Of a stretch of 41,646 bases of DNA, positions 1 through 25,559 are shown in pieces. Location of the stretch: positions 1-41,646 of the forward strand of contig JAEEML010000018.1 of the NCBI GenBank assembly GCA_016283195.1. The letters are read 5' to 3'. Under the pieces are notes generated by a model. That model did not search any database and was not told the origin of the DNA. It saw only the letters and a list, made by a program, of their open reading frames with translations. The position numbers and the translations under genes are program-made. How positions within the stretch are numbered: the first letter of the stretch is position 1; each line of letters starts with the position of its first letter. The stretch is from Deltaproteobacteria bacterium (GTDB taxonomy: Bacteria; JAEEML01).

Positions 1-326
1 AAGGTGGCTTCCCCCGGCTCTTCCATGGCCATAAGCCCCTTATAGAGGCTGTAACAGGAACCATAATCCCTAAAATGCTCGTTATAAACCAAACTAATTT
101 TATCGCCGTAACTTTTAAGATGCTCTTTTACATATTCGGTAAGGGCCGCATAGAGATAGCCGCCGACAATGATATATTTGTCATAAGGGCCACAATTTTC
201 CAAAAGCTGATTTAAGAGCGTAAAACGCGGCGAATCCTTATAATAAAGGCACTTTAAGGTCTCTTTTTCCGTATCTTTGTTAAAGCGGCTGGCTGTGCCG
301 GCCACGGTAATAATGAGGTATTTCAT
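1..326 (-). CDS. LicC/PntC-like nucleotidyltransferase (N-terminal part; runs off the window edge; missing from the ORF track)
   Basis: Manual translation from ATG at 326: MKYLIITVAGTASRFNKDTEKETLKCLYY...IIVGGY...VYNEHFRDYGSCYSLYKG, open to base 1. Resembles the GT-A NTP-transferase start (IIxxAGxxSR..KCL). ATGA overlap with the upstream SDR stop. Confidence 0.75.
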   Translation of the reverse strand, partial: MKYLIITVAGTASRFNKDTEKETLKCLYYKDSPRFTLLNQLLENCGPYDKYIIVGGYLYAALTEYVKEHLKSYGDKISLVYNEHFRDYGSCYSLYKGLMAMEEPGEAT

Positions 327-1321
327 TTTTCGATACTCTTTACGCACATAGTGAGCCCTTCATCAAGCGAAATAATGGGCTGCCAATTGGTGCGGGTGCG
401 GATTTTCTCCGTATTTAAAAGGCGGCGCTCCGGATCCGACTTGCGGTAGCCCTCAAAACGGATTTTTACCTCAGGAATGCCCATCTTCTTGGCAATGAGT
501 TTTACCAAATCGACAATGGAAATCTCCTCATCGGTTGCCACATTATAAACGGTGCCGTCTAAGGCCTTAGGCGTCTCCATGAGCGCCATCACCGCCCGGC
601 AGCTATCAATATTGTGCAAAAAGGTGCGCCTGTTTACTTTGGAATTTTCGAGCAGGGTAACTTCCGGTTTTTCGAGGAGATTATCAATAATATGCGGAAT
701 AATGTGCTCGGCAAAGCGCTCGTGTTTGCTATAGACATTGGCAAAGCGGATGGAGCAGCCCTTGATTTTGCCTTTATCTACAGCATCTTTCATAAAAAAT
801 TCGGTTAAGAGCTTGCCCACCGCGTAACTCGTGCGCTGGCTGTGCTCCGCCGTGGCCATGAGTAAAAAGTCATCTTCGCGCACACCGCCCTTTTCGTTCC
901 ACGACTGCATGGAATAGACCTCGGAAGTGGAGCAATTTATATAAGTATCGGCCCCCAGGCTGATGGCCATATCCAGAAAAGTTTTCATGGAGACGACATT
1001 GGTGGTAAAGGTGTGCTCAACTTCATAAAAATGTTTGGTGTGCACCACAGCGGCGCAATTGATAAAGATGAGGCGGCCGGAGTAACTCCCTTTAAGGCTT
1101 TTCACCTTTTCGGCAATGGCGGCCATCTCTTCGCCGTTATTGATATCATATTCAAAAAAGAGAAAACCAGCGCGCCCTAAAAGGTCTTTTACCGTGTCGA
1201 TGGAGCTGGCAAAGAAATTGTCAAAACCGATGACCATGTTGCCATCTTTTAAGAGCTCCCGGGAAAGCTGGCTGCCGGTCATGCCGGTGGCGCCGCTAAT
1301 GACATAAAGATTGTTAATCAT
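323..1321 (-). CDS. NAD-dependent epimerase/dehydratase (extended SDR, UDP-glucuronate decarboxylase/ArnA-like)
   Basis: GATGMTG Rossmann motif, STSEVY, RTSYAVGK (YxxxK), RFANVY, RTFLH, YNVAT. Confidence 0.85.
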   Translation of the reverse strand: MINNLYVISGATGMTGSQLSRELLKDGNMVIGFDNFFASSIDTVKDLLGRAGFLFFEYDINNGEEMAAIAEKVKSLKGSYSGRLIFINCAAVVHTKHFYEVEHTFTTNVVSMKTFLDMAISLGADTYINCSTSEVYSMQSWNEKGGVREDDFLLMATAEHSQRTSYAVGKLLTEFFMKDAVDKGKIKGCSIRFANVYSKHERFAEHIIPHIIDNLLEKPEVTLLENSKVNRRTFLHNIDSCRAVMALMETPKALDGTVYNVATDEEISIVDLVKLIAKKMGIPEVKIRFEGYRKSDPERRLLNTEKIRTRTNWQPIISLDEGLTMCVKSIEK

Positions 1322-1333
1322 AAAAACTCCTTT

Positions 1334-2062
1334 TTAAATGCCCAAAGAGAGGCGATCGCGATAAAAGGCATCCACTTCAATGCTATAAAGTTTTTGTTCG
1401 GCCGCAAAATCATAAGGAATAGCCAGATGGGTATATGCCGTGGTCTTGGTATCGAGAATACCAAACTGGGCGCAGGGATTAATATTTCTGGGCTGGCCCA
1501 CCGAACCGGGATTGATAAAGATAGTTTTTTTCTTATTTCTGGTGGTGGGGCTATCGGCCGCAAAGAGCACTTCAAAATAGTGCGGCACGTGAGAATGGGC
1601 CGTTAAAACATAGTCATAAGGCGCATATTCGGCCCGCGTAAGCTCAGCCGGCGTAAATTTGCCCCAATAGGGGTCGCCTAAAATGCCATGCAGCAAAAGA
1701 AACTTTTGGCCGGAAATATTAAGCAGCGCCTCACCCTTGGGATTCATGCGCTCATTTATATAAGAGAGAGAGGCCGGCGTGAGCTTTTTTTGCGTATAAT
1801 GGAGCATCGCCCGCCCGCGATCGCTCGCAAAGCGCGTAGTGTCGTTATCCAGCACTGCCTTCTCGTGGTTGCCCCAGATTTCGGCCAAAAAGTCGTCATC
1901 TAAATCTTTAATTATTTCGATAACTTCATTGGGGCGCATGCCGTAGTCGATGAGGTCGCCCAAAAAGATAAATTTTTCCACCTGCCGCGCCCGGCACTCT
2001 TTGAGCACCGCGTTTAGAGCGGTCACATTGGCATGGATATCGGCCAGGATAGCCAGCAGCAT
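1334..2062 (-). CDS. Calcineurin-like metallophosphoesterase (YfcE/MJ0912-like)
   Basis: ADIHAN, LGDLIDYG, GNHE, LHG, AHSH and NPGSVGQPR motifs. Confidence 0.9.
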   Translation of the reverse strand: MLLAILADIHANVTALNAVLKECRARQVEKFIFLGDLIDYGMRPNEVIEIIKDLDDDFLAEIWGNHEKAVLDNDTTRFASDRGRAMLHYTQKKLTPASLSYINERMNPKGEALLNISGQKFLLLHGILGDPYWGKFTPAELTRAEYAPYDYVLTAHSHVPHYFEVLFAADSPTTRNKKKTIFINPGSVGQPRNINPCAQFGILDTKTTAYTHLAIPYDFAAEQKLYSIEVDAFYRDRLSLGI

Positions 2063-3190
2063 TTACTTCCTCAAAAATTCCATCAGCGCCTTTTTGTTCT
2101 CTATGGGCGTGGTTGTCGGCCGGCCCAGGTCCGGGCGGTTCCCTTTTTTGACCTTTATTTCCAAAAGGAGCGGGCCCTGGGTGTGGGCGACTTCTTCTAG
2201 CGCCGCGGCCAATGTTTCCCGGCTATCGGCACTAAAAGCGGCGCGGTAGCCCAGGGCGCGGGCCACCGCCGGGAGGTCGATTTTCAGCCCCACCGTGGGC
2301 TGGCCACCCACGGAATCATGGGCCCCGTTGTTGAAAATTACATGCACATAGCCGGCCGGCGCGTTTTGGGCCACAATAGCCATGGAGCCCAGGTGCATAA
2401 TGGCCGCGCCGTCGCCGTCGAAGCAAAAGACCCGGCGGTCGCCCTTATTAAGGGCGATGCCGAGCGCGATTTGTGAAGCGTGCCCCATAGAGCCCACAGT
2501 TAAAAAATCGCGCTCGTGGCCCGCGCCCGTTTGCACCCGGTATTCAAAGAGCTCACGGCTAATCATACCGGTGGTGGAGACAATTACATCCTTTTCACCG
2601 AGAGCGGCGGCCACCTGCTGAATAGCCTCTTCGCGGCTAAGAGTGAGGCCGTTTTCCTGCGCTTTTTGCAACTTATAGTCGCTAAAAGTGCCCTTCTCTA
2701 TAATGAGAGCATATACTTCGCCGCTCTCCTGCATATATTTAGCCGCCTTGGCAATTTGCCCTGCCGCCACCTCTTCTTCTTTGCTCAAAATGTCATAATT
2801 TATGCCCATGACATTCAAAAGGCCGCTCGTTATTTTGCCCTGCTTAATATGCTGCGGCTCATCGTGCACACCGGGGCGGCCGCGCCAGCCGATGAGGAGG
2901 AGGGCCGGAATATTATAGACTTCTTTATCGGTAAGCGAAGCTAGGGGGTTAATGATATTGCCCTCGCCAGAATTTTGCATATAAACAGCGCCGATTTTGC
3001 CGCTGGCGAGATGATAACCGGCGGCAATGGCCAAAGCCGCCCCTTCGTTAGCGGCTATAATATTGTGTTTTTCGTCAATATTATCGGCTATATAGGCGCA
3101 GATATTTTTGAGTAGCGAATCGGGCACACCGGCAAAAAAATCAATGCCGCATTTGGCCAGGGTAGTAACAAAAAACTTGGGGTCTAACAT
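2063..3190 (-). CDS. aepY: Phosphonopyruvate decarboxylase (TPP-dependent)
   Basis: GVPDSLLK, ANEG, YMQNSGEGN, DEPQH, VGSMGH, DGDGA...NNGAHDSVGGQPT. Directly follows the PEP mutase. Confidence 0.95.
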   Translation of the reverse strand: MLDPKFFVTTLAKCGIDFFAGVPDSLLKNICAYIADNIDEKHNIIAANEGAALAIAAGYHLASGKIGAVYMQNSGEGNIINPLASLTDKEVYNIPALLLIGWRGRPGVHDEPQHIKQGKITSGLLNVMGINYDILSKEEEVAAGQIAKAAKYMQESGEVYALIIEKGTFSDYKLQKAQENGLTLSREEAIQQVAAALGEKDVIVSTTGMISRELFEYRVQTGAGHERDFLTVGSMGHASQIALGIALNKGDRRVFCFDGDGAAIMHLGSMAIVAQNAPAGYVHVIFNNGAHDSVGGQPTVGLKIDLPAVARALGYRAAFSADSRETLAAALEEVAHTQGPLLLEIKVKKGNRPDLGRPTTTPIENKKALMEFLRK

Positions 3191-3192
3191 GA

Positions 3193-4500
3193 TTATTTTT
3201 TGGTTCCGGGAATGAGGTTTAAAATTTCCTTAATCGGCATACAGTATTCATTAGAAGCTTCCAGGCTGCGGCTATGAATGAGAATGGATTCGGCGCACTT
3301 TTTCATGGCCGGGTAAGCCGAGCGCAACATGTGGTTGGCATAAATCACAATATTGATACCCCAAGAAGCGAGCTCCTCTTCGGTAAACTGGTTATAAGTG
3401 GTGGGCACCGCCACAATGGGGGTATGGGCATCCTTCTCGCGGAAACGGCGGCAAAATTCCTTAATATCTTCGCCGCTTTTGTTTTTAGAGTGAATCATTA
3501 TGCCATCGCTACCGGCGGCCACATAGGCATGGCAGCGTTCCAGGGCGTCATCAACCGATTTTCCGGCAATCAGCGACTCACAGCGCGAAATAACCATAAA
3601 ATCATTGGTAACCTGAGCAGCTTTGCCGGCGCGTATTTTGGCCGCAAAGCCCTCAATGGTATCCTGCAGCTGCACGGCATCGGTGCCAAAAAGGGAATTT
3701 TGCTTGAGCCCCACCTTATCTTCAATGATAACGGCCGAAATGCCCAGGCGCTCCAAAGTGCGCACCGTAAAGCCGAAATGTTCCACCTTGCCGCCGGTGT
3801 CGCCATCAAAAATCACCGGTTTAGTGGTGACTTCCAAAGTGTCGTTGAGGTCGTGCAGGCGGGTTGTTAAATCCACCGCTTCGATATCCGGCTTGCCCTT
3901 ACTGGTGGAATCGGTGAGCGAAGAGGACCACATGCCGTCAAATTCGCGCACTGCGCCATTAATCTCCACGCTGGTATGCTCGGCAATGAGGCCGGTAAGG
4001 CCATTATGCGATTCCAAAATGCGCACAATGGGCTTAGCGGCAATCAGGCGGCGGAGAGCTTTTAAGCGCGCCTCCGGCGTGGTGCCCAAAGCGTCCATCT
4101 CTTTTTTGAGCCCGGTGGAAGTAATGCCCTTTGTATAGGGAATCTCAATCACCTCTCCCCCCTGGGCCGCCATCACCTTAAAAACCTCATCGCGAATATA
4201 TCTATCCGCGCCCTGACACCAGTCATCGCCGTGAATAATGTAATCGGGTTTATATCTTTTGAGGTTTTCTACATAGCTCCATTCGTCTTGCGGCACCACC
4301 CGGCTCACACCCTTAATATTCTCGATAACATTTTTGCGCTGCTCATAGTTCAGATAAGGCAGGCGCTTGTGGGTGGCAATGGCTTTATCGGTAAAAAGGC
4401 CGATCATTACTTCGCCGTATTTGGCGCCCTCATTAATGATATTGATGAGGCCGGGGTGCATGATGTCCCCAATCATTCCTAAATAAACTGTCTTGGCCAT
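3193..4500 (-). CDS. aepX: Phosphoenolpyruvate mutase with N-terminal cytidylyltransferase-like domain
   Basis: Diagnostic EDKxxxKxNS motif (EDKVGLKQNS), DGDTGG, YANH. The first ~130 aa are TagD-like (DIMHPG, HGDDW, IPYTKGITST). Confidence 0.95.
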   Translation of the reverse strand: MAKTVYLGMIGDIMHPGLINIINEGAKYGEVMIGLFTDKAIATHKRLPYLNYEQRKNVIENIKGVSRVVPQDEWSYVENLKRYKPDYIIHGDDWCQGADRYIRDEVFKVMAAQGGEVIEIPYTKGITSTGLKKEMDALGTTPEARLKALRRLIAAKPIVRILESHNGLTGLIAEHTSVEINGAVREFDGMWSSSLTDSTSKGKPDIEAVDLTTRLHDLNDTLEVTTKPVIFDGDTGGKVEHFGFTVRTLERLGISAVIIEDKVGLKQNSLFGTDAVQLQDTIEGFAAKIRAGKAAQVTNDFMVISRCESLIAGKSVDDALERCHAYVAAGSDGIMIHSKNKSGEDIKEFCRRFREKDAHTPIVAVPTTYNQFTEEELASWGINIVIYANHMLRSAYPAMKKCAESILIHSRSLEASNEYCMPIKEILNLIPGTKK

Positions 4501-4711
4501 AGAACCCTCTTCCTCCCGCGAGACTTATAATATAAAAGGCCTTAACTTGGCCACCAGATTTTCTTGGCCGGCCGGCGCTTATTCTTCTAAGCTGCCTTGA
4601 GGCCCGGAACTTCCATTTGCAAAGAATTCGTCAGGTATTATATAAGGGTGGCTCGCGGTTGTCCCTAAGGTGCCGGGACTAACGCTAAGGAAGTTAATTG
4701 GTTGATATTTC

Positions 4712-6187
4712 ATGGATAATAATTCTAGCCAGAACAATTCAGCTCTGCGTTCCAAAGCCTTTGGCGGCTTTTTCTGGCGTTTTTTGGAGCGCACCGGAGC
4801 AGAACTGGTTACCTTTGTTGTCTCCGTTATTCTAGCCCGCCTTTTGGATCCGGATTATTACGGCCTCGTGGCTATGGCCTCCGTTATTGTGGCCATTTTA
4901 AATGTTTTTGTGGATAGCGGTTTCGGTAATGCCCTAATTCAAAAGAAGAATGCCGATGAATTGGATTTTTCCACTGTCTTCTTCTTTAATATCGGCGCCT
5001 GCATCTGCATGTATTTATTGCTTTACTTTACCGCCCCGTATATGGCTTCTTTTTACAAAATGCCGGATTTAACTTATGTTATAAGGGTGCTTGGCTTAAT
5101 CCTGATTATCTCTGGCCTCAAAAATATCCAGCAAGCTTATGTTTCCCGCCACATGCTTTTTAAGCGCTTCTTTTTTGCCACTCTCGGCGGCACCCTCGGC
5201 GCGGCGGCTATAGGTATTTTCATGGCCTATAAAGGTTACGGCGTTTGGGCTTTAGTGGCGCAAACACTTTTTAATACCATCACCGATACCGTCATTTTAT
5301 GGTTCACCGTGCCTTGGCGCCCCAAGCTTATTTTTTCTTTTAATCGCTTAAAGGGGCTCTTTAATTACGGCTGGAAAATGCTGGCCTCGGCCATCATTGA
5401 TCGCGCTTACAATGAGCTGCGCACTCTCTGCATCGGCCGCCTCTATCAGCCGGCCGATTTAGCTTATTACCGCAAAGCCGGCTCTTTTCCAAAAATGATT
5501 GTCACCAACATCAATAGCGCCATAGCCAGCGTGCTTATGCCACTTTTATCGCAAAAGCAAGACGACACAGAGAGTGTGCGCAACATAACCAGCATGGCTA
5601 TAAAGACCACCACTTTTCTTATCATGCCGGCAATGATGGGCCTTGCTATCTGTGCAGAATCTTTTGTGCTTTTGCTCTTAACGGAAAAATGGCTGCCTTG
5701 TGTGCCCTTTATCCGCATTGCCTGCTTTACTTATGCCTTTTATCCTATCCACACCACTAATCTGGTAGCCATTCAGGCTCTGGGGCGCAGCGATATTTTT
5801 TTAAAGCTGGAAATATTCAAAAAAATATTTAATATCATTATATTAATTATCACCGTCAATTATGGCGTCTTGGCCATTGCCTACGGCGGTGTAGCCATTT
5901 CCATCGCCAATCAGCTCATCAACTCCTGGCCCAACAAAAAACTCTTAAATTATAGCTATTTGCAGCAACTAAATGATATGTTACCCCAAATAATTCTCTC
6001 CCTGGTAATGGGCGCTATAGTTTATCCTTTTACCTTTTTAAAGCTCTCCCCGCTCACTACTCTGCTAATCCAAATACCCTGCGGTATCTTCGTTTATTTT
6101 GCCATGGCCCATATTTTAAATTTAAAAACTTATAATTATTTCAAAAAAATAAGCCGCGAATTTATAGCCAAGAAGTTTAAAAAATGA
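4712..6187 (+). CDS. wzx: Wzx/WzxC-type polysaccharide flippase (MOP family)
   Basis: W..LER....FVVSVILARLL.P..YG, DSGFGNALIQKK; many hydrophobic helices; 491 aa. Confidence 0.9.
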   Translation: MDNNSSQNNSALRSKAFGGFFWRFLERTGAELVTFVVSVILARLLDPDYYGLVAMASVIVAILNVFVDSGFGNALIQKKNADELDFSTVFFFNIGACICMYLLLYFTAPYMASFYKMPDLTYVIRVLGLILIISGLKNIQQAYVSRHMLFKRFFFATLGGTLGAAAIGIFMAYKGYGVWALVAQTLFNTITDTVILWFTVPWRPKLIFSFNRLKGLFNYGWKMLASAIIDRAYNELRTLCIGRLYQPADLAYYRKAGSFPKMIVTNINSAIASVLMPLLSQKQDDTESVRNITSMAIKTTTFLIMPAMMGLAICAESFVLLLLTEKWLPCVPFIRIACFTYAFYPIHTTNLVAIQALGRSDIFLKLEIFKKIFNIIILIITVNYGVLAIAYGGVAISIANQLINSWPNKKLLNYSYLQQLNDMLPQIILSLVMGAIVYPFTFLKLSPLTTLLIQIPCGIFVYFAMAHILNLKTYNYFKKISREFIAKKFKK

Positions 6188-6215: not shown

Positions 6216-7232
6216 ATGATTAAGCCGCTTGTTTCAGTAAAGTGCATGACCTATAACCACGGCCCCTATATAGCTGAATGTCTCGATGGTTTTATGGCGC
6301 AAAAGACAAATTTCCCCTTTGAAGTGCTGGTGCACGACGATGCCTCAACCGATGACACTGCCGCCGTTATCCGCCGCTATGAAAAGAAATATCCCCAGAT
6401 AATAAAGCCGATTTACGAAAAGGAAAATCTCTATTCCAAAGAGGATGTCTCGGTACACACCGGCATAGATGCCCTTATTAGCGGCAAGTATTTGGCTATC
6501 TGCGAAGGCGACGACTATTGGTGCGACCCTTATAAATTGCAAAAACAGGTAGATTTTTTAGAGAGCCATCCGGATTATTCCCTGGTGCACAGCGCCAAAA
6601 AAGTTTATGTGCAAAAAAATCGGCGCTTCGCCATAAAACTTCCGGTCCATGTTCCTAAAGATGATGAATATTTTAACTATTTACTTACCGAGCGCAATTG
6701 TATTTCCACTCCCACGGTGATGATGCGCTCTGCTATGTATAAAGAGTACCGCCGGGTGATAAATCCGGCTGTCAAAGAGGGCTGGATTTTAGGCGATTTG
6801 CCCATGTGGCTCTATGCCGCAAGGAAAGGCAAAATTCACTTTATGCCGGAAAAAACGGCTGTTTATCGCCAGCTTACACATTCGGCCTCCCATTTTTCCT
6901 CCACGGAAAAATACTGGACTTTTGTGTGTTCGGTGCGCACAATCCGCGAATTTTTTGCCGAAAAATATGGCGTCGCTCTGCCCCCCTGGAATAAAGAACT
7001 GGCTTTTTATGAAGCCGCTTGCAACTCGCTGGGGAGTTCTTATTCCGAAGCCAACCGGGCAACCCTTTTAGCGGCCTTCCGCGCTTTAAAAAATGAGCAA
7101 AAAAAGCTTTCGCTCCTTATACCGCTTGCGGCCTCAGTGAGTAAAACAAGTTATAAATTCTGGTATTACGGCCGCTCGGCCCAAAAATTTTATAGCCGCA
7201 AGCTAAATTCGCTCTTTAAGGCCATTTTTTAA
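6216..7232 (+). CDS. Glycosyltransferase family 2
   Basis: PLVSV...TYNH, HDDASTD, CEGDDYW...KLQKQ. Confidence 0.9.
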   Translation: MIKPLVSVKCMTYNHGPYIAECLDGFMAQKTNFPFEVLVHDDASTDDTAAVIRRYEKKYPQIIKPIYEKENLYSKEDVSVHTGIDALISGKYLAICEGDDYWCDPYKLQKQVDFLESHPDYSLVHSAKKVYVQKNRRFAIKLPVHVPKDDEYFNYLLTERNCISTPTVMMRSAMYKEYRRVINPAVKEGWILGDLPMWLYAARKGKIHFMPEKTAVYRQLTHSASHFSSTEKYWTFVCSVRTIREFFAEKYGVALPPWNKELAFYEAACNSLGSSYSEANRATLLAAFRALKNEQKKLSLLIPLAASVSKTSYKFWYYGRSAQKFYSRKLNSLFKAIF

Positions 7233-7593: not shown

Positions 7594-10341
7594 TCACGAG
7601 CAACCGCTGGTGGTGCCGCAGTTAGGGCAGAGGTAGCAGCTACCGCTTCTTACGGTAATAGAGCCGCAATTTATGCAAGCCGGCGCATCTATCGCCGTTT
7701 CGTAAGTTTTTTCGCGCTTTAAGCCAGAGAAATTGGCCTCTTTGGGCGGCGTAAGAGCCGGTTTAATGGCCGCTTCGCCAGCGGCGATGGGCTGCAAAGT
7801 GCGGCTCTCCTCAGCCCCGGGCAATAAGAATTTTTGCTCCAGCCAGCGGAAGATATAATCGGTGATAGATTTGGCAATGGGCAATTTGGGATTGCCGGTA
7901 AAGCCCGAAGGCTCAAAACGGGAGTGGGAGAATTTATCAACCAGTACTTTAAGCGGCACGCCGTATTGCAAAGCCAGAGAAACAGAGGTGGCAAAGTTAT
8001 CCATCAGGCCGCTTATAGTGCTGCCCTCTTTGGATATAACTATAAAAAGCTCTCCCGGCTGGCCGTCTTCATACATGCCCACTGTGAGATAGCCCTCGTG
8101 GCCGCCTATGGAGAATTTATGGGTAATGGCCCGGCGCTCCGGCGGCAAGCGATGGCGGAAACCGTTTGGCGGTGTTTCGGCAGCCAAAAGTTCGGCCGGT
8201 TTTTCGGCCTGAGTTTGGGTGGAAGTGGCCTTTTGCTCCTCTTCTTTAACATTTTTGGTATTTAAAGGCTGCGTCCTTTTGGAGCCGTCGCGATAGAGAG
8301 CCACAGCTTTTAGGCCCAGTTTCCAGGCGGCCATATAAGTATCGGCAATATCTTTAACCGTAGCGCTGCTGGGCAAATTCACCGTTTTGGAAATAGCACC
8401 GGAAATAAAGGGCTGCACGGCGGCCATCATTTTTAAGTGGCCGAGCGGTGCAATAGAGCGCTGCCCTTTGGCCGGCTTTAAAGCACAATCAAAAACAGCC
8501 AAATCCTCATCTTTTAGGCCGGGTGCACCTTCAATGGTGTCACTCGCGCGCACATAAGCCAAAATTTCCTCTATAGTCTCCCGCTTATAACCAAGGTGGA
8601 GCAGTGCCGGTTCAATAGAGCTGTTACTCATTTTAAAGACACCGCCGCCTACCAGCTGTTTATATTTTACCAAGGCGATATCCGGCTCAATGCCGGTGGT
8701 GTCGCAATCCATCAAAAAGCCGATAGTGCCAGTAGGGGCCAGCAATGTCGTTTGGGCATTACGCACTCCATGACTTGCCGCCTCTTCCAATACTTTTTGC
8801 CAAACAGCATGACAAACTGGCAAAATTTCTTTGTTTTCCGCGGTTTCCTCAATTTGTTTTTGCCTTATGGCGTGCTTGGTGAGCACTTCCAGCATACTTA
8901 GGCGGTTTTCGTCATAAGCGGCAAAGGGCCCTTTTAAAGCGCTAAGACGCGCGCTCGTAAGATAGGCGGTGCCGGTAATAAGGGCGGTAACAGCGGCTGC
9001 CAGCTGCCTTGCTCTATCGGAGTCGTAAGGGAGGCCGAGAGTCATGAGATAGGCGCCCAAATTGGCATAGCCCAGGCCGAGCGGCCTAAATTTAATAGAA
9101 TTTTTGGTAATGCGCTCCGTGGGGTATGAGGCTTTATCCACCAAAATTTCCTGGGCAGTCAGGGTTATTTCCACGGCGTGCATCAGCCCTTTTATATCTA
9201 TCTGCCCCGCTTCATCGGTAAAACGCAGTAAATTCAAAGAGGCCAAATTACAGGCCGCATCATCCAGAAACATAAATTCACTGCAAGGATTACTGGCATT
9301 TATGCGCCCGCTGGCTTTACAAGTGTGCCACTCGTTGATGGCTGTATCAAATTGCAAACCGGGATCGCCGCAAATATAGGCAGCCTGCGCTATTTGCTCA
9401 AAAATACGGCGAGCCGAGACTTTCCGGGCAACCTTGCCGTCGGTAATGCGAATTAAAGGCCACTCGGCATCTTTTTCCACCGCTTGCATAAATTCATCGG
9501 TTACCCGCACCGAGTGATTGGCGTTTTGAAAGAAAACCGAGCGGTAAGCTTCACCGTTAAAAGAGCCGTCATAGCCCTCCTCAATCAGAGCCCAGGCCTT
9601 TTGCTCCTCGTGGGCTTTGGCATCGATAAACTCCTCAATATCGGGGTGGTCCACATTTAAAATCACCATTTTGGCCGCCCGCCTGGTTTTACCGCCGCTT
9701 TTAATAACACCGGCAAAGCTGTCAAAGCCGCGCATAAAAGAGACCGGCCCGGAAGCCGTACCGCCGCCGGAGAGAGTTTCGCAGGATGCGCGGATGGTGC
9801 TCATGTTGGTGCCGGTGCCGGAACCGTATTTAAAGAGTTTACCCTCGGTGACAGCCAGGTTTAAAATGCTATCAAGATTATCTTCCACCGAATTGATAAA
9901 ACAAGCGGAAATTTGCGGCTTTTCTTCCAAACCCAAATTAAACCAAACCGGGCTGTTAAAGGCCATGTACTGGTTTAAAAGGAGGTAGGCGAGCTCATCG
10001 TGAAAAGCGCTTTTCTCTTCCTCGTTTTGCAAATACCCCTGAGAAAGGCCCCAGGCGGCAATGGTATCCACAATACGGCTAACGAGTGTTTTTAAGCTGT
10101 CCTCGCGCTCCGCTGTACCCGGCTCACCGCGAAAATATTTGGAGGCGGCAATATTGGTGGCCATTTGCGACCAAAAAGAGGGCATTAAAATGTTATCCTG
10201 TTTAAAAACCGGCTTACCGTTATCGCCCATTATAACGGCGCTTCTCTCTTCCCATGTCACTTCGTCAAAGGGGTCCTGGCCGCTTTTGGTATAATAGCGC
10301 TCTACCCACCCCCGGTGTATGTTGTCTATCTCTGTACTCAT
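7594..10341 (-). CDS. nrdJ: Vitamin B12-dependent (class II) ribonucleotide reductase with C-terminal TSCPD-type domain and Zn ribbon
   Basis: FNSPVWFN, SACFI, GGKTRRAAKM, NPCSEF (thiyl Cys), APTGTI; C-terminus CINCG..CYLCPNCG..SGCS. Start placed at ATG 10341 (AAGGA RBS) rather than GTG 10383. Confidence 0.95.
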   Translation of the reverse strand: MSTEIDNIHRGWVERYYTKSGQDPFDEVTWEERSAVIMGDNGKPVFKQDNILMPSFWSQMATNIAASKYFRGEPGTAEREDSLKTLVSRIVDTIAAWGLSQGYLQNEEEKSAFHDELAYLLLNQYMAFNSPVWFNLGLEEKPQISACFINSVEDNLDSILNLAVTEGKLFKYGSGTGTNMSTIRASCETLSGGGTASGPVSFMRGFDSFAGVIKSGGKTRRAAKMVILNVDHPDIEEFIDAKAHEEQKAWALIEEGYDGSFNGEAYRSVFFQNANHSVRVTDEFMQAVEKDAEWPLIRITDGKVARKVSARRIFEQIAQAAYICGDPGLQFDTAINEWHTCKASGRINASNPCSEFMFLDDAACNLASLNLLRFTDEAGQIDIKGLMHAVEITLTAQEILVDKASYPTERITKNSIKFRPLGLGYANLGAYLMTLGLPYDSDRARQLAAAVTALITGTAYLTSARLSALKGPFAAYDENRLSMLEVLTKHAIRQKQIEETAENKEILPVCHAVWQKVLEEAASHGVRNAQTTLLAPTGTIGFLMDCDTTGIEPDIALVKYKQLVGGGVFKMSNSSIEPALLHLGYKRETIEEILAYVRASDTIEGAPGLKDEDLAVFDCALKPAKGQRSIAPLGHLKMMAAVQPFISGAISKTVNLPSSATVKDIADTYMAAWKLGLKAVALYRDGSKRTQPLNTKNVKEEEQKATSTQTQAEKPAELLAAETPPNGFRHRLPPERRAITHKFSIGGHEGYLTVGMYEDGQPGELFIVISKEGSTISGLMDNFATSVSLALQYGVPLKVLVDKFSHSRFEPSGFTGNPKLPIAKSITDYIFRWLEQKFLLPGAEESRTLQPIAAGEAAIKPALTPPKEANFSGLKREKTYETAIDAPACINCGSITVRSGSCYLCPNCGTTSGCS

Positions 10342-10516
10342 GATATTCCTTAATATAGTAAAGGCAGGGTAATTTGTCTCCACCTGCTGAATGCGCCCTT
10401 ATTCTTGACAAAAAAAACAGCCTGGCAAGAGCGAAAATATTGAATAAATTCGCATTGATGAACTCTTCGCTCAGAAAGCCGTCAATTTTAAAGGTAATTT
10501 TTTTAACTCTGCTTTA

Positions 10517-11327: not shown

Positions 11328-12062
11328 TTAAATAGCTGTTATATCTGCACTTTTGCCGGTAAGAAGAGCTCTCGGGTTATCTTCCAGCAGCTTTTTAACC
11401 GCTTTTTCTCCCAGCTCTTTTTTCAGCGCGGCGATGGTGGCGCCAAATTCCGCGCACATAGTCACATCATGGCTATCGGAAGCGGCCAAATGGGCCAAAT
11501 GATTATCTATGAGCTCACGCACGCGGGTTTGCGCCTTTTTGCCGTAATAGCCGCCAAGGCTGCTGGCCTCTATTTGCAAAAAAAAGCCCCCGGCCGAAAC
11601 GCGCTCGGAAAGCCATTCCAAAGAATAGCCCGGGCTGCGCTCCGGATGCGCGAGCACCAAAGTATAGCCAAGGCTTTGCAATTCAAAAATCATGGCCGAA
11701 AGGCGCTCTTTGGCCACTTCTGTCCAGGGTAATTCAATTAGAAGCGCCTCTTCGCCGGGCACGCCAAAGGGCACAATATAGGAAGCGACATCTTGCAATA
11801 TAAGCGGATCCAAATTGTGCTCGGCCGACATATGCAATTTGAGCGGCAGGCCCTCTCTTTTTATGGCGGCGCTTAGTAGCTCATAGCGATTTGCGATAAC
11901 TTCGCGCTTTAGCGGCACCAGCGAAAGGCCTGGCAGGTGCGGAGTGGCAATAACTTCGTCAATACCGGATGCCAATAGAGCTTTAGCCATGGCCAGGCTG
12001 GTTTCCAGGCTATCGGAACCGTCATCTATTTGCGGGAGAATGTGGCAGTGAATATCAATCAT
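11328..12062 (-). CDS. CpsB/CapC-family PHP protein-tyrosine phosphatase
   Basis: MIDIHCHILPQIDDGS, ATPH, LIELP, AHPER, ASDSH, NP. Confidence 0.9.
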   Translation of the reverse strand: MIDIHCHILPQIDDGSDSLETSLAMAKALLASGIDEVIATPHLPGLSLVPLKREVIANRYELLSAAIKREGLPLKLHMSAEHNLDPLILQDVASYIVPFGVPGEEALLIELPWTEVAKERLSAMIFELQSLGYTLVLAHPERSPGYSLEWLSERVSAGGFFLQIEASSLGGYYGKKAQTRVRELIDNHLAHLAASDSHDVTMCAEFGATIAALKKELGEKAVKKLLEDNPRALLTGKSADITAI

Positions 12063-18762: not shown

Positions 18763-21072
18763 TTAAGCCTTGTGCTTATGCCCATGCTTCTTCTCGCCGT
18801 TTTCGCTGCCCTCCTCGGAATAAGCGGAAGAATAAGCCGAAGAATAGCTGTAATAATGATAACCGTAGCGATAATAACCGCCGCGCGTATAAGCTGATTT
18901 CTTCGGTGTGGCGTTAAAGACAAAGCCAATAAGAGGCGCATTCATCTGCTGCAACTGGGTGGCAATAGAGCGCAGGGCCACCCTGTCGGTGAGGCCCGGA
19001 CGCACCACCAGGAGCAAATTATCCACCACTCGCGAGATAATAAGCGCATCGCCTAAAGCCATGAGCGGCGGGCTATCAAAAACCACATAATCAAAACGAT
19101 TTTTAAGCTCGGCTACCACATCGCGGAATTGCGGTGAACTCAAAAGTTCGGCGGAATTTGGTGGCAAGGGGCCGCTTGTTAGCACCGAAAGCCCGGGAAT
19201 ATCGCTCTCTCTAATGGCTTCATCCAGCGTTTTACGGCCGGTAAGCACCGAGCTGATACCGATATTATTTTTTAAATCATAAATACGGTGCACCATCGGC
19301 TTATGTAAATCGGTATCAATAACAATAACTTTTTTGCCAAGCGCAGCCAGGCTTGCGGCCACAAAATTAGTAACCGTACTTTTGCCCTCTTTGGGATTGG
19401 CCGAAGTTAAAAGCAGACTTGAAGGGGTATTTTCCATGCCGGCGGCCAAAAGATTGATGCGGATAAAGCGGATAGATTCCGCGAGTGAGCTTTTGGGGAA
19501 AAATTGCGGAAAATATTCCACGCGCCGCCGCTCGTTAAGAGCCAGATAGCGATTTAGCTCTTCTTCGCTGATGTTCAGCGATTTATCAACAGCCGGGTCA
19601 AAATCATGCTCAAGCTGCGTTAAAGCCCCCAGCATAGGACGGTGCACCAGCTTTTCCGCCTCTTCGCGGCCGCTTAACTTGGTGTCGAGAGTTTCAAGAA
19701 TAAAGGCCAGAACAATAGCCATAAAAAGGCCAAGGACAAAAGAGAGGAGTATATTTATTTTAACCCGCGGCGATATGGGAAATTGGGGAGTAACCGCGTG
19801 TTCCACTATCTCCACATCCACAAATTGGGCCACACCTGACAGCTGCGTCTCTTTACTGCGTTTGATAACCAGAGCATAAAGATTGCGATAATTGGTGAGC
19901 TCGTAATTGCGCCTTTGATATTCCACTGTCAGGCTGTTTAAGCGGAGAGCCTCTTGCCTGGTGCGGGCAAGTTCCTGAGAAATAATATTTACTGTGCGGT
20001 CGAGCTCTATTTTGCGCTGCTTGGCTCTATTCACCAAAAGTTTTAATTCGTCCTTCAGCGAGTTTTCCACGGCCTCCAGTTGCTCAAGTGCGGCTTTATA
20101 AGCCGGATGCTTGGGGCCATATTGAGTAACTACTTGGCTAAACTCCTGCTGCCTGGCCAAAACCACCTCGCGCAAATTATCCAGAGTGGCATTGCCGAGT
20201 GTTAAGGGACTTGCCAGCATGGCCTTGTAATCATTTTGAAAATCGGTGAGCGTTTTTAGCTGCACGTCGGCCCGCCACAAGTCGGTTTTTACATCCATCA
20301 GCTGGCTGCTAAGGCGCTTTTGCTTATCGGCAATAAGACTTTCATAGGCTTCAAAAGAGGTGGCCTCAATATTATTGGCCTTTTGAAAATCCAAAAGATT
20401 TTTTTCGGCCTCATTTAATTGCGTTAAGAGGCCGCCTTCCTGCTCAACAAGCCAACTGGTGGCTGAGCCAATCATGGAAATTTTATTTTCGCGGCGCAAG
20501 GTGTTGTAGCCGTTAACCACTTCTGTGGCAATCATGCGGGCAAGCTCAGGATTACGATTTTTTACTGTAATGGTGGCAAGGTCAGAATCACGGCTCAAAG
20601 AGACAGCTACCTGGCGGGCTAAAATATCAGTGGGGTTTAAGCGGCTTAAGGCCTTTTCGGCCTCTAAGGGCGGCAATTTATCAATGCCTAAAAAGCTATA
20701 ATTAGTGGCTAGTTGCAAATTGGCTACCACTTTTTCCAAAACCGGGCGGCTGGTAATTACTTTGGCCTGGGTGTTGCGGTAATCTTTATTAAAAAGGTAA
20801 TAAGAGGCCGTGGATTCCAGCCCTTCTACCTGGCGGCCCAAGGGGCGCAGAGTCTCATTATTGAGCACTATAACCGTGCTGGCCTGATAAATTTTTGGCT
20901 GGCGCATAGTGTAAATCACACCCAGCGCGGTAACCATAATAATGGCCAAAAGCATAAAAGGCCAGCGGCGGCGCAAAATAGCCACATATTCCATAATATC
21001 AAAGGCATCGCTTTGAACAGCCCTGACATCGATGGGAGCTTCTAAAGATTTATGCAAATTGGTGTCGCTCAT
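18763..21072 (-). CDS. wzc: Wzc polysaccharide co-polymerase / BY tyrosine autokinase
   Basis: Two TMs flanking a periplasmic coiled coil; Walker A (SANPKEGKST), IDTDLHKP, DSPP; C-terminal Tyr cluster GGYYRYGYHYYSY. Confidence 0.93.
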   Translation of the reverse strand: MSDTNLHKSLEAPIDVRAVQSDAFDIMEYVAILRRRWPFMLLAIIMVTALGVIYTMRQPKIYQASTVIVLNNETLRPLGRQVEGLESTASYYLFNKDYRNTQAKVITSRPVLEKVVANLQLATNYSFLGIDKLPPLEAEKALSRLNPTDILARQVAVSLSRDSDLATITVKNRNPELARMIATEVVNGYNTLRRENKISMIGSATSWLVEQEGGLLTQLNEAEKNLLDFQKANNIEATSFEAYESLIADKQKRLSSQLMDVKTDLWRADVQLKTLTDFQNDYKAMLASPLTLGNATLDNLREVVLARQQEFSQVVTQYGPKHPAYKAALEQLEAVENSLKDELKLLVNRAKQRKIELDRTVNIISQELARTRQEALRLNSLTVEYQRRNYELTNYRNLYALVIKRSKETQLSGVAQFVDVEIVEHAVTPQFPISPRVKINILLSFVLGLFMAIVLAFILETLDTKLSGREEAEKLVHRPMLGALTQLEHDFDPAVDKSLNISEEELNRYLALNERRRVEYFPQFFPKSSLAESIRFIRINLLAAGMENTPSSLLLTSANPKEGKSTVTNFVAASLAALGKKVIVIDTDLHKPMVHRIYDLKNNIGISSVLTGRKTLDEAIRESDIPGLSVLTSGPLPPNSAELLSSPQFRDVVAELKNRFDYVVFDSPPLMALGDALIISRVVDNLLLVVRPGLTDRVALRSIATQLQQMNAPLIGFVFNATPKKSAYTRGGYYRYGYHYYSYSSAYSSAYSEEGSENGEKKHGHKHKA

Positions 21073-23729: not shown

Positions 23730-25559
23730 CTATTCTATATACCCTAGTGCCTTAAGCTGAGCCGCCGTTTCCGGGGAAAGTTCCCCCTCTTCCGCCGCGC
23801 TGCCACCTTTGGCAAAGATCTTTTCATAGCGCAATAGTTCATCGGCAGTAGAGCGGTATTTCTCGGTAGCGGATAAATCATGCTTTTCGGCGCTATCGGC
23901 CGCAAGATCATAAAGTTCCAGCGGTTTTAGCCCGCGCGGATTATCTTTATTGGCTTTAATCAGGCTATAAAAGCCGCTGATAATGGCCGTTAGTTCATGG
24001 CCCTGGTGATCCTCTTCGGCGAGGTGAATAGTGGGCGCAGTGCCGCTAAAAAGGTCCATACCGGCCCACATAGGATTAGCCGCCAGATTGTTAAGCGCGG
24101 CCAATGTGGGCAAAATATCGCTCTGCCTGGCCATCGTAACCTGGCGCCCGGCGGCAATATCCGGCCCAAAGATAATAAACGGCACCTTAAGTTGCTCTTC
24201 ATAGAGGCTGGTACCATGGTAAAAATGGCCGTGTTCGGCAAACTCCTCGCCGTGATCAGCCGTAAATACTATTTGCACTTTTCCCCATAAGCCACGCTCT
24301 TTCAGGCCGGCAAAAAGAGCGCCAAGCCCCTCATCCAGGCGCTCCACTTCATCTTTATAAGCGCCATACATCTCTTTAGCCATAGCCGCTGCAGGAAAGG
24401 GGGTGGCCACTCTGGCATAAGAAGCACCGTTTTTCGCAAAATAAGGGTCGTGAGGATCCATATAGTGTAAATACAAAAAGAAAGGCCGCTCATCGCTCCT
24501 GGTATCCAGCAAATTCAGGGCTTCCAAACTCACTACTTCGGCCGGCTGATAAAAATATTCCGCTCGGCGCCCAAAGGGCAAATAGCGCTCTCTTATGAGG
24601 CGATACATATTATAAACGCTAAGGTTTGTGGCACTCTGCGGGGCACCGAAATAGCGCCTGGCCTTAAGCTCCCGATATTCGTCAAACCCCTGGTTAAAGC
24701 CAAAAGCGCTCCCAAGATTACTGTTATTACTGACAGCCAAAGTATTATAACCGCCTTTTTTAAAGAGCTCGGCCATAGTCTCATGCTCTTCTTTTAAAAG
24801 CGCTTTTTTGGAAATTGCCTGATGTTGGCGCGGCAAAAGGCCGGTCATAATGGTGGCAACTGCCGGTTTAGTCCAACTGGCTGCGGCATAACTATTTTCA
24901 AAAACCAACCCCTCCTTGGCAAGAGCAGCTAAATTTGGCACCTGAGCTGGCGCTCCAAGGGCATTTTGGGCACTATAAAAAGGCAAGACATCGGCCCGCA
25001 AGGTATCGGCAATAATTAAAATAGTGCCTCCCGGGTGCTGGGCAAAACTCTTGCTCTTCGCTTGGCCGTGCACCTCTTCCCCTCGGAGAAGAAAAGCCAG
25101 CGTACCAAAAATAAATATCAGGGGAATAATATAACTAAAACTGAGTACACGGGCGCTTAAATGACGCTCGGTAAAGCTCACTAAGCTATAAATAACCAAA
25201 GAGCTGATTAAAGCAAAAAGAAAGGCCAAAAGCGATGCCCGACCGCTCTCTGCCTGGTGCTCGGCAAAATAGTTGCGAAAGATCAAAAAGCGCCCGACAA
25301 CCAAAGCCGGAATGCCCCAAAAGAAAGTAGCCAAAAGGCGCAAAATACGCTCGGTTAAAGCCTTATCGCGCTTTTTGGGGCACAAAAAGCCGCTGATAAA
25401 AAGCAAAAGCCCGCCCAAAAGAGCAGCTATGGCTCCGTAAAAAAGCGCGGCAAAGAGGGGATCAGCACCAACTAAAAGTGCCTCCAAAAGCCCCACTAAA
25501 AAGGGGCCCAGGCTAATGGCGAGAAGCCCTCTTTTTAGCAAGATATTGGGGTCATTCAT
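23730..25559 (-). CDS. Membrane-anchored sulfatase/alkaline-phosphatase-superfamily protein
   Basis: About 5 N-terminal TMs, then DTLRAD, SWTKP, GFNQGF, HYMDPHDPY, TADHGE, ELYDL. Confidence 0.85.
   Translation of the reverse strand: MNDPNILLKRGLLAISLGPFLVGLLEALLVGADPLFAALFYGAIAALLGGLLLFISGFLCPKKRDKALTERILRLLATFFWGIPALVVGRFLIFRNYFAEHQAESGRASLLAFLFALISSLVIYSLVSFTERHLSARVLSFSYIIPLIFIFGTLAFLLRGEEVHGQAKSKSFAQHPGGTILIIADTLRADVLPFYSAQNALGAPAQVPNLAALAKEGLVFENSYAAASWTKPAVATIMTGLLPRQHQAISKKALLKEEHETMAELFKKGGYNTLAVSNNSNLGSAFGFNQGFDEYRELKARRYFGAPQSATNLSVYNMYRLIRERYLPFGRRAEYFYQPAEVVSLEALNLLDTRSDERPFFLYLHYMDPHDPYFAKNGASYARVATPFPAAAMAKEMYGAYKDEVERLDEGLGALFAGLKERGLWGKVQIVFTADHGEEFAEHGHFYHGTSLYEEQLKVPFIIFGPDIAAGRQVTMARQSDILPTLAALNNLAANPMWAGMDLFSGTAPTIHLAEEDHQGHELTAIISGFYSLIKANKDNPRGLKPLELYDLAADSAEKHDLSATEKYRSTADELLRYEKIFAKGGSAAEEGELSPETAAQLKALGYIE

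Follow-up and report, generated by a model that had tools for sequence, protein, structure and literature searches.

How does a phosphonate operon proceed beyond phosphonoacetaldehyde when neither of the two enzymes that normally take over this aldehyde is encoded beside it? The question is raised by a 41,646-nt stretch of DNA from Deltaproteobacteria bacterium (GenBank assembly GCA_016283195.1), which is the entire contig JAEEML010000018.1 (C149, referred to here as the window) of an assembly of 190 contigs and 3.2 Mb with a completeness estimate of 100%. The left end of the window encodes phosphoenolpyruvate (PEP) mutase (PepM) and phosphonopyruvate decarboxylase (Ppd), followed by a metallophosphoesterase (MPE), an extended short-chain dehydrogenase/reductase (SDR) and a nucleotidyltransferase of the DUF6564 family; related genomes add a sixth gene, for a 393-aa dehydrogenase. 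We tentatively propose, with a little less than even confidence, that this six-gene module starts from PEP and ends in a phosphonate head group that is cytidylyl-activated and destined for surface glycans, and that it needs neither a 2-aminoethylphosphonate (AEP) transaminase (AEPT) nor an iron-dependent alcohol dehydrogenase (Fe-ADH). The assembly is taken here as that of a rumen Fibrobacter. The nearest relatives of the phosphonate genes of the window were found in Fibrobacter metagenome-assembled genomes (MAGs), with identities of 91-93% for PepM, 77-80% for Ppd, 71-75% for the MPE and 85-88% for the SDR.

The five open reading frames (ORFs) lie on the minus strand in the order pepM (4500..3193, 435 aa), ppd (3190..2063, 375 aa), MPE (2062..1334, 242 aa), SDR (1321..323, 332 aa) and DUF6564 (326..3, open at the contig edge), and GGAGGAAGAGG sits 7 nt ahead of the pepM ATG. 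The pepM/ppd junction reads TAA-TC-ATG, a gap of 2 nt, and the ppd/MPE junction reads TAAATG, a gap of 0 nt. At the MPE/SDR junction the TAA is followed by 12 nt containing AAGGAG and then by ATG, and the SDR stop overlaps the DUF6564 start as ATGA. Re-reading all four junctions thus agreed with the initial annotation, which had described five genes forming one coupled unit that runs beyond the window; DUF6564 does end after residue 108 at the edge of C149.

The first two enzymes can be assigned to their families. PepM is a single 435-aa protein in which a cytidylyltransferase-like domain (PF01467, residues 12-131, E 2.6e-11) is fused to PEP mutase (residues 149-433; PF13714 at residues 149-407, E 3.1e-53). 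Its TIGR02320 score of 400.9 bits exceeds the family cut-off of 319.55, and the sequence EDKVGLKQNS at residue 260 fits EDKxxxxxNS, the Ppm-specific motif of Rice et al. 2019. In the N-terminal domain, conservation of D12, H15 and G17 was 90% or higher among 65 sequences. Ppd, with TPP_enzyme_N and TPP_enzyme_C domains, scored 506.7 bits with TIGR03297 (cut-off 312.5). Since both PEP mutase and Ppd are present, the module should make phosphonoacetaldehyde.

The initial annotation had noted that neither an AEP transaminase (AepZ) nor an Fe-ADH follows Ppd, and the same was seen across the genome of the window. The AEP pathway is recognized by an AEPT (TIGR03301 or TIGR02326) in the cluster or genome. 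No protein in this genome reached the TIGR03301 cut-off (best score 39.6 bits vs 360.8); the best match is a NifS-like desulfurase beside ThiF/JAB, and all three weak matches are ordinary class-V enzymes. The absence of an AEPT from this genome is not proven, because the assembly is fragmented. The mark of the 2-hydroxyethylphosphonate (HEP) pathway, a group III Fe-ADH of the PhpC/FomC type clustered with ppm and ppd, was likewise not found in the genome; the single clear Fe-ADH is encoded on contig C45, after genes for a TetR regulator and a metallo-beta-lactamase-fold protein and away from the phosphonate genes.

What lies past the left edge could be read in relatives, where a conserved sixth gene, unseen in the window, comes after DUF6564. 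The gene for the 393-aa protein begins no more than about 6 nt after DUF6564 (247 aa) in the Fibrobacter relatives, and the operon then abuts convergent LicD genes. In the genome of the window this sixth gene is on the 2.7-kb contig C183 (595-1776), its product is 82% identical to the copy in the related locus L009, and a convergent LicD gene comes next; further LicD genes are on contig C120. A search of the whole assembly for the 3′ part of DUF6564 found no copy. An element of about 124 nt (L089, on C183, 458-581) stands directly upstream of the sixth gene and recurs three times on C45 (L007 608-660, 5151-5218 and 5770-5893), once at the very end of the contig, with 87-90% identity. The break on C183 may have arisen during assembly, at a dispersed repeat, or may reflect a true rearrangement that separated DUF6564 from the dehydrogenase gene. 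Two observations on these small contigs can be added. Upstream of the sixth gene, C183 carries the last 106 residues of an EGF-like ORF with a very high cysteine content (L089 3-323, plus strand), and C120 has ORFs of 853 and 255 aa (L090 588-3149 and 3146-3913) without a Pfam family, upstream of three LicD paralogues.

Whether the six genes belong together was assessed by scanning one genome per species with an alignment of the MPE. At least 598 stretches matched, at least 582 of them encoding a relative, and the analysis continued with the best 80 loci. Genes were counted in these loci as blastp matches above 80 bits to proteins of the genome of the window or of L009. Besides the MPE (80, by selection), DUF6564 was present in 75, the 393-aa gene in 75, the SDR in 74, PepM in 64, Ppd in 63 and LicD-like genes in 43; several of the missing genes correspond to short contigs (L018, L037, L039). 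Adjacency was the rule for MPE and SDR (67/70), SDR and DUF6564 (64/69) and DUF6564 and dehydrogenase (66/71), often with overlapping stop and start codons. Judged by their record titles, the best 80 loci come from Fibrobacter (12), Bacteroidota (15), Clostridia (45), Treponema (5), a planctomycete of the Thermoguttaceae, a Thermoplasmata archaeon and one further source. Sixteen of them had no pepM, and all five genomes of this kind that were checked (L054, L057, L072, L087 and L064) hold exactly one PEP mutase elsewhere. Among 60 unrelated bacterial genomes, none encoded the 393-aa protein (E<=1e-30) or an orthologue of the SDR (E<=1e-40), and each of them held 2-23 extended-SDR candidates. 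One Prevotella MAG contig carries two full six-gene modules about 20 kb apart (L021 and L030), each with its own pepM and ppd; their MPEs are 53% and 49% identical to that of the window.

The association extends to a second, divergent clade. A profile of the 393-aa family found 566 representatives at E<=0.001 among 1.84 billion entries, 73 of them at E<=1e-30, and seven distant members (31-37% identity) led to 16 metagenome loci (L102-L117). Other members of the set adjoin the dehydrogenase in 15 of these 16 loci, and the sixteenth contig begins inside the gene. The SDR was seen in 12 loci, PepM, Ppd and the MPE in 8 each, and DUF6564 and LicD in 6 each; all six genes are visible only in L102 and L115. 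The partners are about 23-50% identical to those of the window (MPE 29-37%, SDR 28-32%, DUF6564 23-26%, with PepM and Ppd reaching 50% in L102 and L109). The SDR of this clade retains DNFF, SSSE-Y and YxxxK, and its MPE retains the metal motifs. The clade also differs in having a longer PepM (about 530 aa) and up to four LicD paralogues. These genes have therefore stayed associated across a great span of evolution, and nothing argues more strongly that every one of them serves the phosphonate pathway and not a neighbouring sugar pathway.

This evidence bears directly on the possibility that the SDR, DUF6564 and the MPE build a separate nucleotide-activated, non-phosphonate glycan component, leaving the 393-aa enzyme as the only phosphonate-specific one of the four. 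The idea draws on the richness of the loci in sugar-nucleotide genes (Glf, RmlA/C/D, GT2) and on the resemblance of the SDR to UXS, RmlB and UDP-GlcA epimerase. We consider it highly improbable: order and adjacency to pepM/ppd are kept across phyla and in the divergent clade, the genomes with these genes away from pepM still hold pepM (5/5), and no SDR orthologue occurred in the unrelated genomes.

The distribution of the usual enzymes in the same loci was consistent with that in the genome of the window. An AEPT above the cut-off was found in 4 of the 80 loci (L043, L059, L074 and L082) and a sub-threshold look-alike in another three (L031, L038 and L045), leaving 73 without either. Weak Fe-ADH-like ORFs occurred in two (L043 and L049), each beside extra pepM copies, and neither AEPT-like nor Fe-ADH ORFs were found in the 16 loci of the divergent clade. 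Genome-wide, four of five cultured isolates with the module lacked any AEPT scoring above the threshold (Prevotellaceae HUN156, Eubacterium ruminantium ATCC 17233, Hoylesella saccharolytica JCM 17484 and Roseburia sp. 1XD42-69); the fifth, Bacteroides sp. GD17, has one, on a separate contig from the module. AEP could nevertheless be supplied by an unlinked or non-canonical aminotransferase, such as the DegT enzyme of the Fibrobacter glycan operon, with the four remaining genes tailoring AEP or CMP-AEP. A DegT aminotransferase cluster does occur in 16 of the 80 loci, and two loci have a true AEPT within the operon: L074 (7292-8413, in the order Ppd-AEPT-...-MPE) and L082 (3986-5806), with TIGR03301 scores of 462 and 467 bits, respectively, the latter fused to a nucleotidyltransferase domain and directly before Ppd and the MPE. 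AEP may therefore be an intermediate or a second product in some organisms; the arrangement suggests either that a single pool of phosphonoacetaldehyde feeds two head groups or that some lineages pass through AEP. As a general explanation, this origin of the nitrogen appears to be a long shot, since most loci have no DegT, four of the five isolates have no AEPT over the cut-off, 73 of the 80 loci hold the module without an aminotransferase of this kind, the scanned ORFs of C120 and C183 are LicD or have no Pfam family, and homologues of the convergent operon of L009 are LicD only.

If phosphonoacetaldehyde is not transaminated, the 393-aa protein becomes the enzyme of greatest interest. Its predicted model was of high quality (pLDDT 91.3, pTM 0.92). 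A structural search placed malate dehydrogenase first (9sc9, Z 22.6, root-mean-square deviation 3.3, 285/314 residues aligned), with L-2-hydroxyisocaproate dehydrogenase at Z 21.6 and GH4 glycosidases at Z 19.4-18.8, and Foldseek agreed with the lactate/malate dehydrogenase (LDH/MDH) fold. At the sequence level the protein is far from any named family. It had no Ldh_1_N or Ldh_1_C match in Pfam at E<=0.001 and no NCBIfam family; the only Pfam match was PF03435, over the Rossmann part (residues 22-114), at 23.8 bits for the L009 copy and 27.4 bits for the L040 copy. Searches of the PDB with the sequence gave nothing below E 0.2, the nearest ESM Atlas clusters were all annotated as hypothetical protein, LDH-family clusters appearing first at 0.83, and of 18 distant relatives compared with NCBIfam 16 had no family and two gave sub-threshold noise. 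The saccharopine dehydrogenase label that PF03435 would suggest was rejected, the match being weak and confined to the Rossmann part and the saccharopine reductase structures scoring Z 9.9 (1e5l) and 9.8 (5l76) vs 22.6 for malate dehydrogenase. A profile match to carboxyspermidine dehydrogenase (8deb) was non-significant (E 0.39), and the fold search went against a saccharopine-type label.

The invariant residues of the dehydrogenase are GxGxxG, G53-R54 after the second strand, R111, R127, D163, H186, R190, H215, H217 and D218. In the distant clade R54, R111 (R110 there), D163 (D162), H186 and H215 (H221) are invariant and R190 is nearly so; a GH4-like metal site formed by H186, H215, H217 and D218 was dropped, H217 and D218 being lost in distant relatives. 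LDH uses the catalytic His195, the substrate-binding Arg171 and Asp168. From secondary structure and an hhalign alignment at a probability of 2.9%, H215 may correspond to His195, R190 to Arg171 and H186 to Asp168. The protein shares with the superfamily the whole-chain fold (Z 22.6 to 18.8) and GxGxxG, and would share a conserved His and Arg at the presumed places of His195 and Arg171; it differs in about 70 extra residues and in Arg instead of Asp after the second strand, and would differ in having His for Asp168. The genome of the window contains no Ldh_1_C match at E<=0.001, and 13 of 14 control genomes have one.

With these properties, the dehydrogenase is at least as good a candidate as the SDR for the aldehyde step, and probably the better one. 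It could be a non-iron phosphonoacetaldehyde reductase producing HEP, which DUF6564 or the Fom1-like domain would convert to CMP-HEP for installation by LicD, the SDR and the MPE tailoring or editing the CMP conjugate. The fold and the conserved His/Arg positions do recall the carbonyl-reducing lactate and malate dehydrogenases, and the adjacency of the reductase and cytidylyltransferase genes in 66 of 71 loci is reminiscent of TarJ/TarI, the reductase/cytidylyltransferase pair of CDP-ribitol synthesis. A complex prediction for the dehydrogenase with DUF6564, as a TarJ/TarI-like pair, scored 0.00 and counts neither way. In addition, PepM bears PF01467, a domain for which Rice et al. 2019 give the HEP cytidylyltransferase Fom1 as an example. 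We regard this route as a serious contender but rather unlikely: it leaves the SDR and the MPE without a needed role, and according to Li and Horsman 2022 (PMC8942020) the phosphonate of F. succinogenes, an organism with this type of cluster and without AEPT, contains nitrogen, so that HEP alone would be insufficient. The initial annotation had itself named a phosphonoacetaldehyde reductase just downstream as an observation that would speak against its own scheme, and this would be the case if the dehydrogenase has that activity.

The next question is which protein could attach CMP. The 108 residues of DUF6564 in the window (3..326, minus strand) match PF20202 with 97.3 bits at profile positions 1-81 of 230, and a full-length relative, 79% identical over these residues, reaches 303.3 bits. 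The second, LicC-like nucleotidyltransferase of the initial annotation is therefore present. The full-length relative remains below the PF12804 cut-off (21.1 bits vs 27). The model of the L009 copy (pLDDT 93.6) has a nucleotidyltransferase fold; the closest structure was the phosphonate-specific cytidylyltransferase PntC (6pd1, Z 22.3, root-mean-square deviation 2.8, 218 residues), tied with GlmU within 1 Z, and LicC followed at Z 20.2. LicC was also the only significant solved relative by sequence profile (E 6.7e-5). Invariant A9, G10, R14 and F15 give the nucleotide loop (A/G)GxGxR. Eight fusions of DUF6564 were found, mostly singletons (Acyl_transf_3 three times; SDR, PepM and racemase once each), and were judged unreliable as a Rosetta-stone signal.

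The SDR (323..1321, minus strand; PF01370/PF16363) has the full nucleotide-sugar-type architecture, PF16363 being matched at positions 2-331 of 332. It reached no NCBIfam cut-off, the best being TIGR01181 with 90.8 bits vs 365.1, and it cannot be called a UXS or RmlB equivalog; its best PDB matches were RmlB (6bi4, E 1.3e-16) and UXS (E 4e-14). Invariant in 34 sequences were GxxGxxG, DNF, CSTSE-Y, S131-T132-S133-E134 and Y166-x-x-x-K170, and the DNFF, STSEVY and YxxxK segments align with STSEVYG and YxxGK of hUXS1 and with RmlB. This pattern is typical of UXS/RmlB-type enzymes, which keep NAD+ bound, oxidize the substrate transiently and are not net reductases. The protein thus shares with UXS/ArnA and RmlB the extended SDR form with DNFF, S-T-S-E-V-Y and YxxxK; unlike them, it forms a distinct orthologue group, which matches solved members only at E 1e-16 to 1e-13, lies far under the NCBIfam cut-offs and occurs in phosphonate clusters only, with 62-87% identity between phyla. 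Two MAGs holding the rest of the module yielded no SDR, those of a Thermoguttaceae member (L031) and a Christensenella (L035). It is truncated in Bacteroides intestinalis AF14-32 (L065 10730-11206) and split into two ORFs in an Alistipes MAG (L032 10741-11731), in modules otherwise intact. Together, the damaged copies and the two genomes hint that the SDR step is dispensable.

The MPE (1334..2062, minus strand) matched PF12850 with 67.7 bits (cut-off 27), and PF12850 and PF00149 were its only Pfam matches at E<=0.001. The residues of a dinuclear site, D8, H10, G35-D36, G64-N65-H66-E67, H125, H156 and H158, were invariant in 17 sequences, and profile searches against the PDB placed the protein in a group with the uncharacterized 3rqz (E 6.1e-28), 3qfm (2.7e-17), which we take to be the Ap4A/phosphodiester hydrolase SapH, and YfcE (4.8e-8).

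These properties can be compared with the scheme of the initial annotation, in which the SDR reduces CMP-activated phosphonoacetaldehyde and the MPE removes or proofreads CMP as FomD does. The complete nucleotide-sugar-type architecture of the SDR, the phosphodiesterases among the nearest solved relatives of the MPE (YfcE and, if it is SapH, 3qfm) and the presence of two cytidylyltransferase-type proteins fit such a scheme, and removal of CMP by the MPE is possible. As a whole, the scheme looks distinctly improbable. It does not take the conserved sixth dehydrogenase into account, the motifs of the SDR are those of transient oxidation and not of net reduction, the SDR was not found in two genomes with the rest of the module, and the MPE lies outside what we take to be the family of FomD. 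In sum, the observation of the initial annotation was confirmed and its interpretation is partly supported.

To our knowledge, all biological phosphonates of this type begin at PEP mutase. With this start and without a transaminase, nitrogen would have to be introduced reductively, and the two NAD(P) enzymes are the candidates for that. We favour the dehydrogenase for the aldehyde step because it is the most pathway-specific protein, and over the SDR because the latter resembles a transient-oxidation enzyme for a nucleotide-linked substrate and was not found in two module genomes. In the proposed pathway PEP mutase and Ppd would convert PEP into phosphonoacetaldehyde, and the NAD(P)H-dependent 393-aa enzyme would act on this aldehyde, most likely by reductive coupling to an amine (ethanolamine or its precursor). 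DUF6564, the Fom1-like domain of PEP mutase, or both would attach CMP; the SDR would remodel the nucleotide-linked intermediate through transient oxidation, the MPE would cleave a nucleotide- or phosphate-bearing intermediate or by-product, and LicD would move the phosphonyl group onto a sugar. Coupling to an amine is favoured because, according to Li and Horsman 2022 (PMC8942020), F. succinogenes with this cluster type makes N-(2-hydroxyethyl)-AEP and has no transaminase. Cytidylyl activation and LicD transfer would follow the logic of the Pnt and Lic pathways (Rice et al. 2019).

A more specific form of this pathway, which we consider improbable, uses L-serine. Here the dehydrogenase would be an opine-type reductive aminase joining phosphonoacetaldehyde to L-serine, or alternatively to O-phosphoserine, freed by the phosphoesterase; after addition of CMP, the UXS-like SDR would oxidize, decarboxylate and again reduce the serine arm with no net redox change, just as UXS treats UDP-glucuronate, giving CMP-N-(2-hydroxyethyl)-AEP for LicD. 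The serine version would explain why a decarboxylase-type SDR is found in a phosphonate cluster and why its substrate must be nucleotide-linked, and in the few SDR-free genomes the head group would keep the carboxylate. If true, the LDH/MDH superfamily would gain its first reductive aminase, and a UXS-type decarboxylase would for the first time have a substrate that is not a sugar.

Several points weigh against the pathway that we propose. The steps after Ppd are predicted for every member, and the roles of the SDR and the MPE are guesses; we know of no reductive aminase with the lactate/malate dehydrogenase fold, and the mapping of its residues to LDH leans on the weak profile alignment and the reading of secondary structure already mentioned. 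The SDR was not found in two genomes otherwise holding the module. A true AEPT lies inside the same operon in L074 and L082, and the Fibrobacter loci carry the DegT aminotransferase in the convergent glycan operon. In the MAG of the window the operon is not contiguous: DUF6564 is truncated at the end of C149, and on C183 the sixth gene is preceded by the end of another gene and a repeat where the relatives have DUF6564. Finally, the link to a product is second-hand, resting on the statement of one paper on F. succinogenes (PMC8942020).

That statement belongs to a survey of ppm neighbourhoods. Li and Horsman 2022 (PMC8942020) report, citing Vinogradov et al. 2001, that the exopolysaccharide of F. 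succinogenes (gene cluster family, GCF, 60) has an N-hydroxyethyl derivative of AEP, and they take the missing AEPT to favour reductive amination with ethanolamine. In their survey the cluster type is an unclassified, "post-Ppd other" neighbourhood, about 13% of pepM neighbourhoods fall outside all seven known branch points, and both PF12850 and domains of the GDP-mannose-dehydratase type are common to GCF 60 and the archaeal GCFs 869 and 685. Those neighbourhoods resemble the operon of the window in combining Ppm and Ppd without AEPT, PF12850, a GDP-mannose-dehydratase-type SDR and a Fibrobacter host. The treatment there is two sentences long and assigns the step to no enzyme, whereas here a six-gene set and its folds are defined. 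Relative to that paper, the present analysis adds the sixth gene with its fold, the resemblance of DUF6564 to PntC in fold, the spread over at least five phyla, the second clade and the specificity controls. The suggestion of the initial annotation that the route is uncharacterized holds in that the gene set is conserved across phyla without an assigned route, but the cluster type was already in print as unclassified. A literature search covering journals outside subscription found only Li and Horsman on Fibrobacter AEP or hydroxyethyl-AEP; it returned nothing further on reductive amination of phosphonoacetaldehyde, on Ppd with a metallophosphoesterase or on LicD with phosphonate, and no paper on DUF6564.

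Two characterized systems are useful for comparison. The Pnt pathway (Ppm-Ppd-AEPT-PntC-LicD; Rice et al. 2019) shares with the module a PEP mutase-nucleotidyltransferase fusion, Ppd, a PntC-like fold, LicD and a glycan context. The module differs in having no AEPT in this genome and in 73 of 80 loci, in its additional MPE, SDR and dehydrogenase, and in a DUF6564 protein under the PF12804 cut-off. The early steps of fosfomycin biosynthesis in Streptomyces (Fom1, Fom2, FomC, Fom3, FomD) also use a cytidylyltransferase (PF01467)-PEP mutase fusion and Ppd, and a reduction step and a transient CMP handle that is later hydrolysed are possible further likenesses. Unlike that pathway, the operon has neither an iron alcohol dehydrogenase nor a radical SAM gene, its hydrolase is a dinuclear metallophosphoesterase of PF12850, presumably a different family from that of FomD, and its product is proposed for a glycan, via LicD, and not as an antibiotic.

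The surroundings of the operon in the window include further surface-related genes. A divergent intergenic region (4501..4711), read from the sequence, separates the phosphonate operon from glycan genes on the plus strand, which encode a Wzx-type flippase (4712-6187; PF13440, E 1.3e-95) and a GT2 glycosyltransferase (6216-7232; PF00535, E 2.1e-17). Between the glycan genes and recO is the gene for a 929-aa ribonucleotide reductase of class II (B12-dependent), which has a TSCPD domain at its C-terminus (7594-10383, minus strand). Capsule-type genes are dispersed at 11328-12062, 18763-21072 and 23730-25559; their products are a CpsB/CapC phosphatase, a Wzz-GNVR-P-loop tyrosine-kinase-type protein and an LtaS/sulfatase-family protein, which, judging from its family, could pass a phospho-alcohol to a surface polymer.

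Our analysis thus points to a module that would be a variant of phosphonyl tailoring, with the chemistry after Ppd predicted from sequence. It is one of the pepM neighbourhoods outside the known branch points, is common in rumen and gut anaerobes, its MPE alone matching at least 582 species-level genomes, and includes one unannotated protein family, the 393-aa dehydrogenase, and one Pfam DUF, DUF6564. Because the gene set is small and self-contained, it could be tested directly by expression and 31P-NMR. A carbon-phosphorus decoration of cell-surface sugars made without the usual amino-transfer or alcohol-forming enzyme is likely to be a new biochemical route. Solving the module would give phosphonate biochemistry a further early branch point, would explain the origin of N-(2-hydroxyethyl)-AEP in Fibrobacter glycans and would reveal what decorates the surface of such abundant gut bacteria as Prevotella, Bacteroides, Roseburia, Ruminococcus and Treponema.

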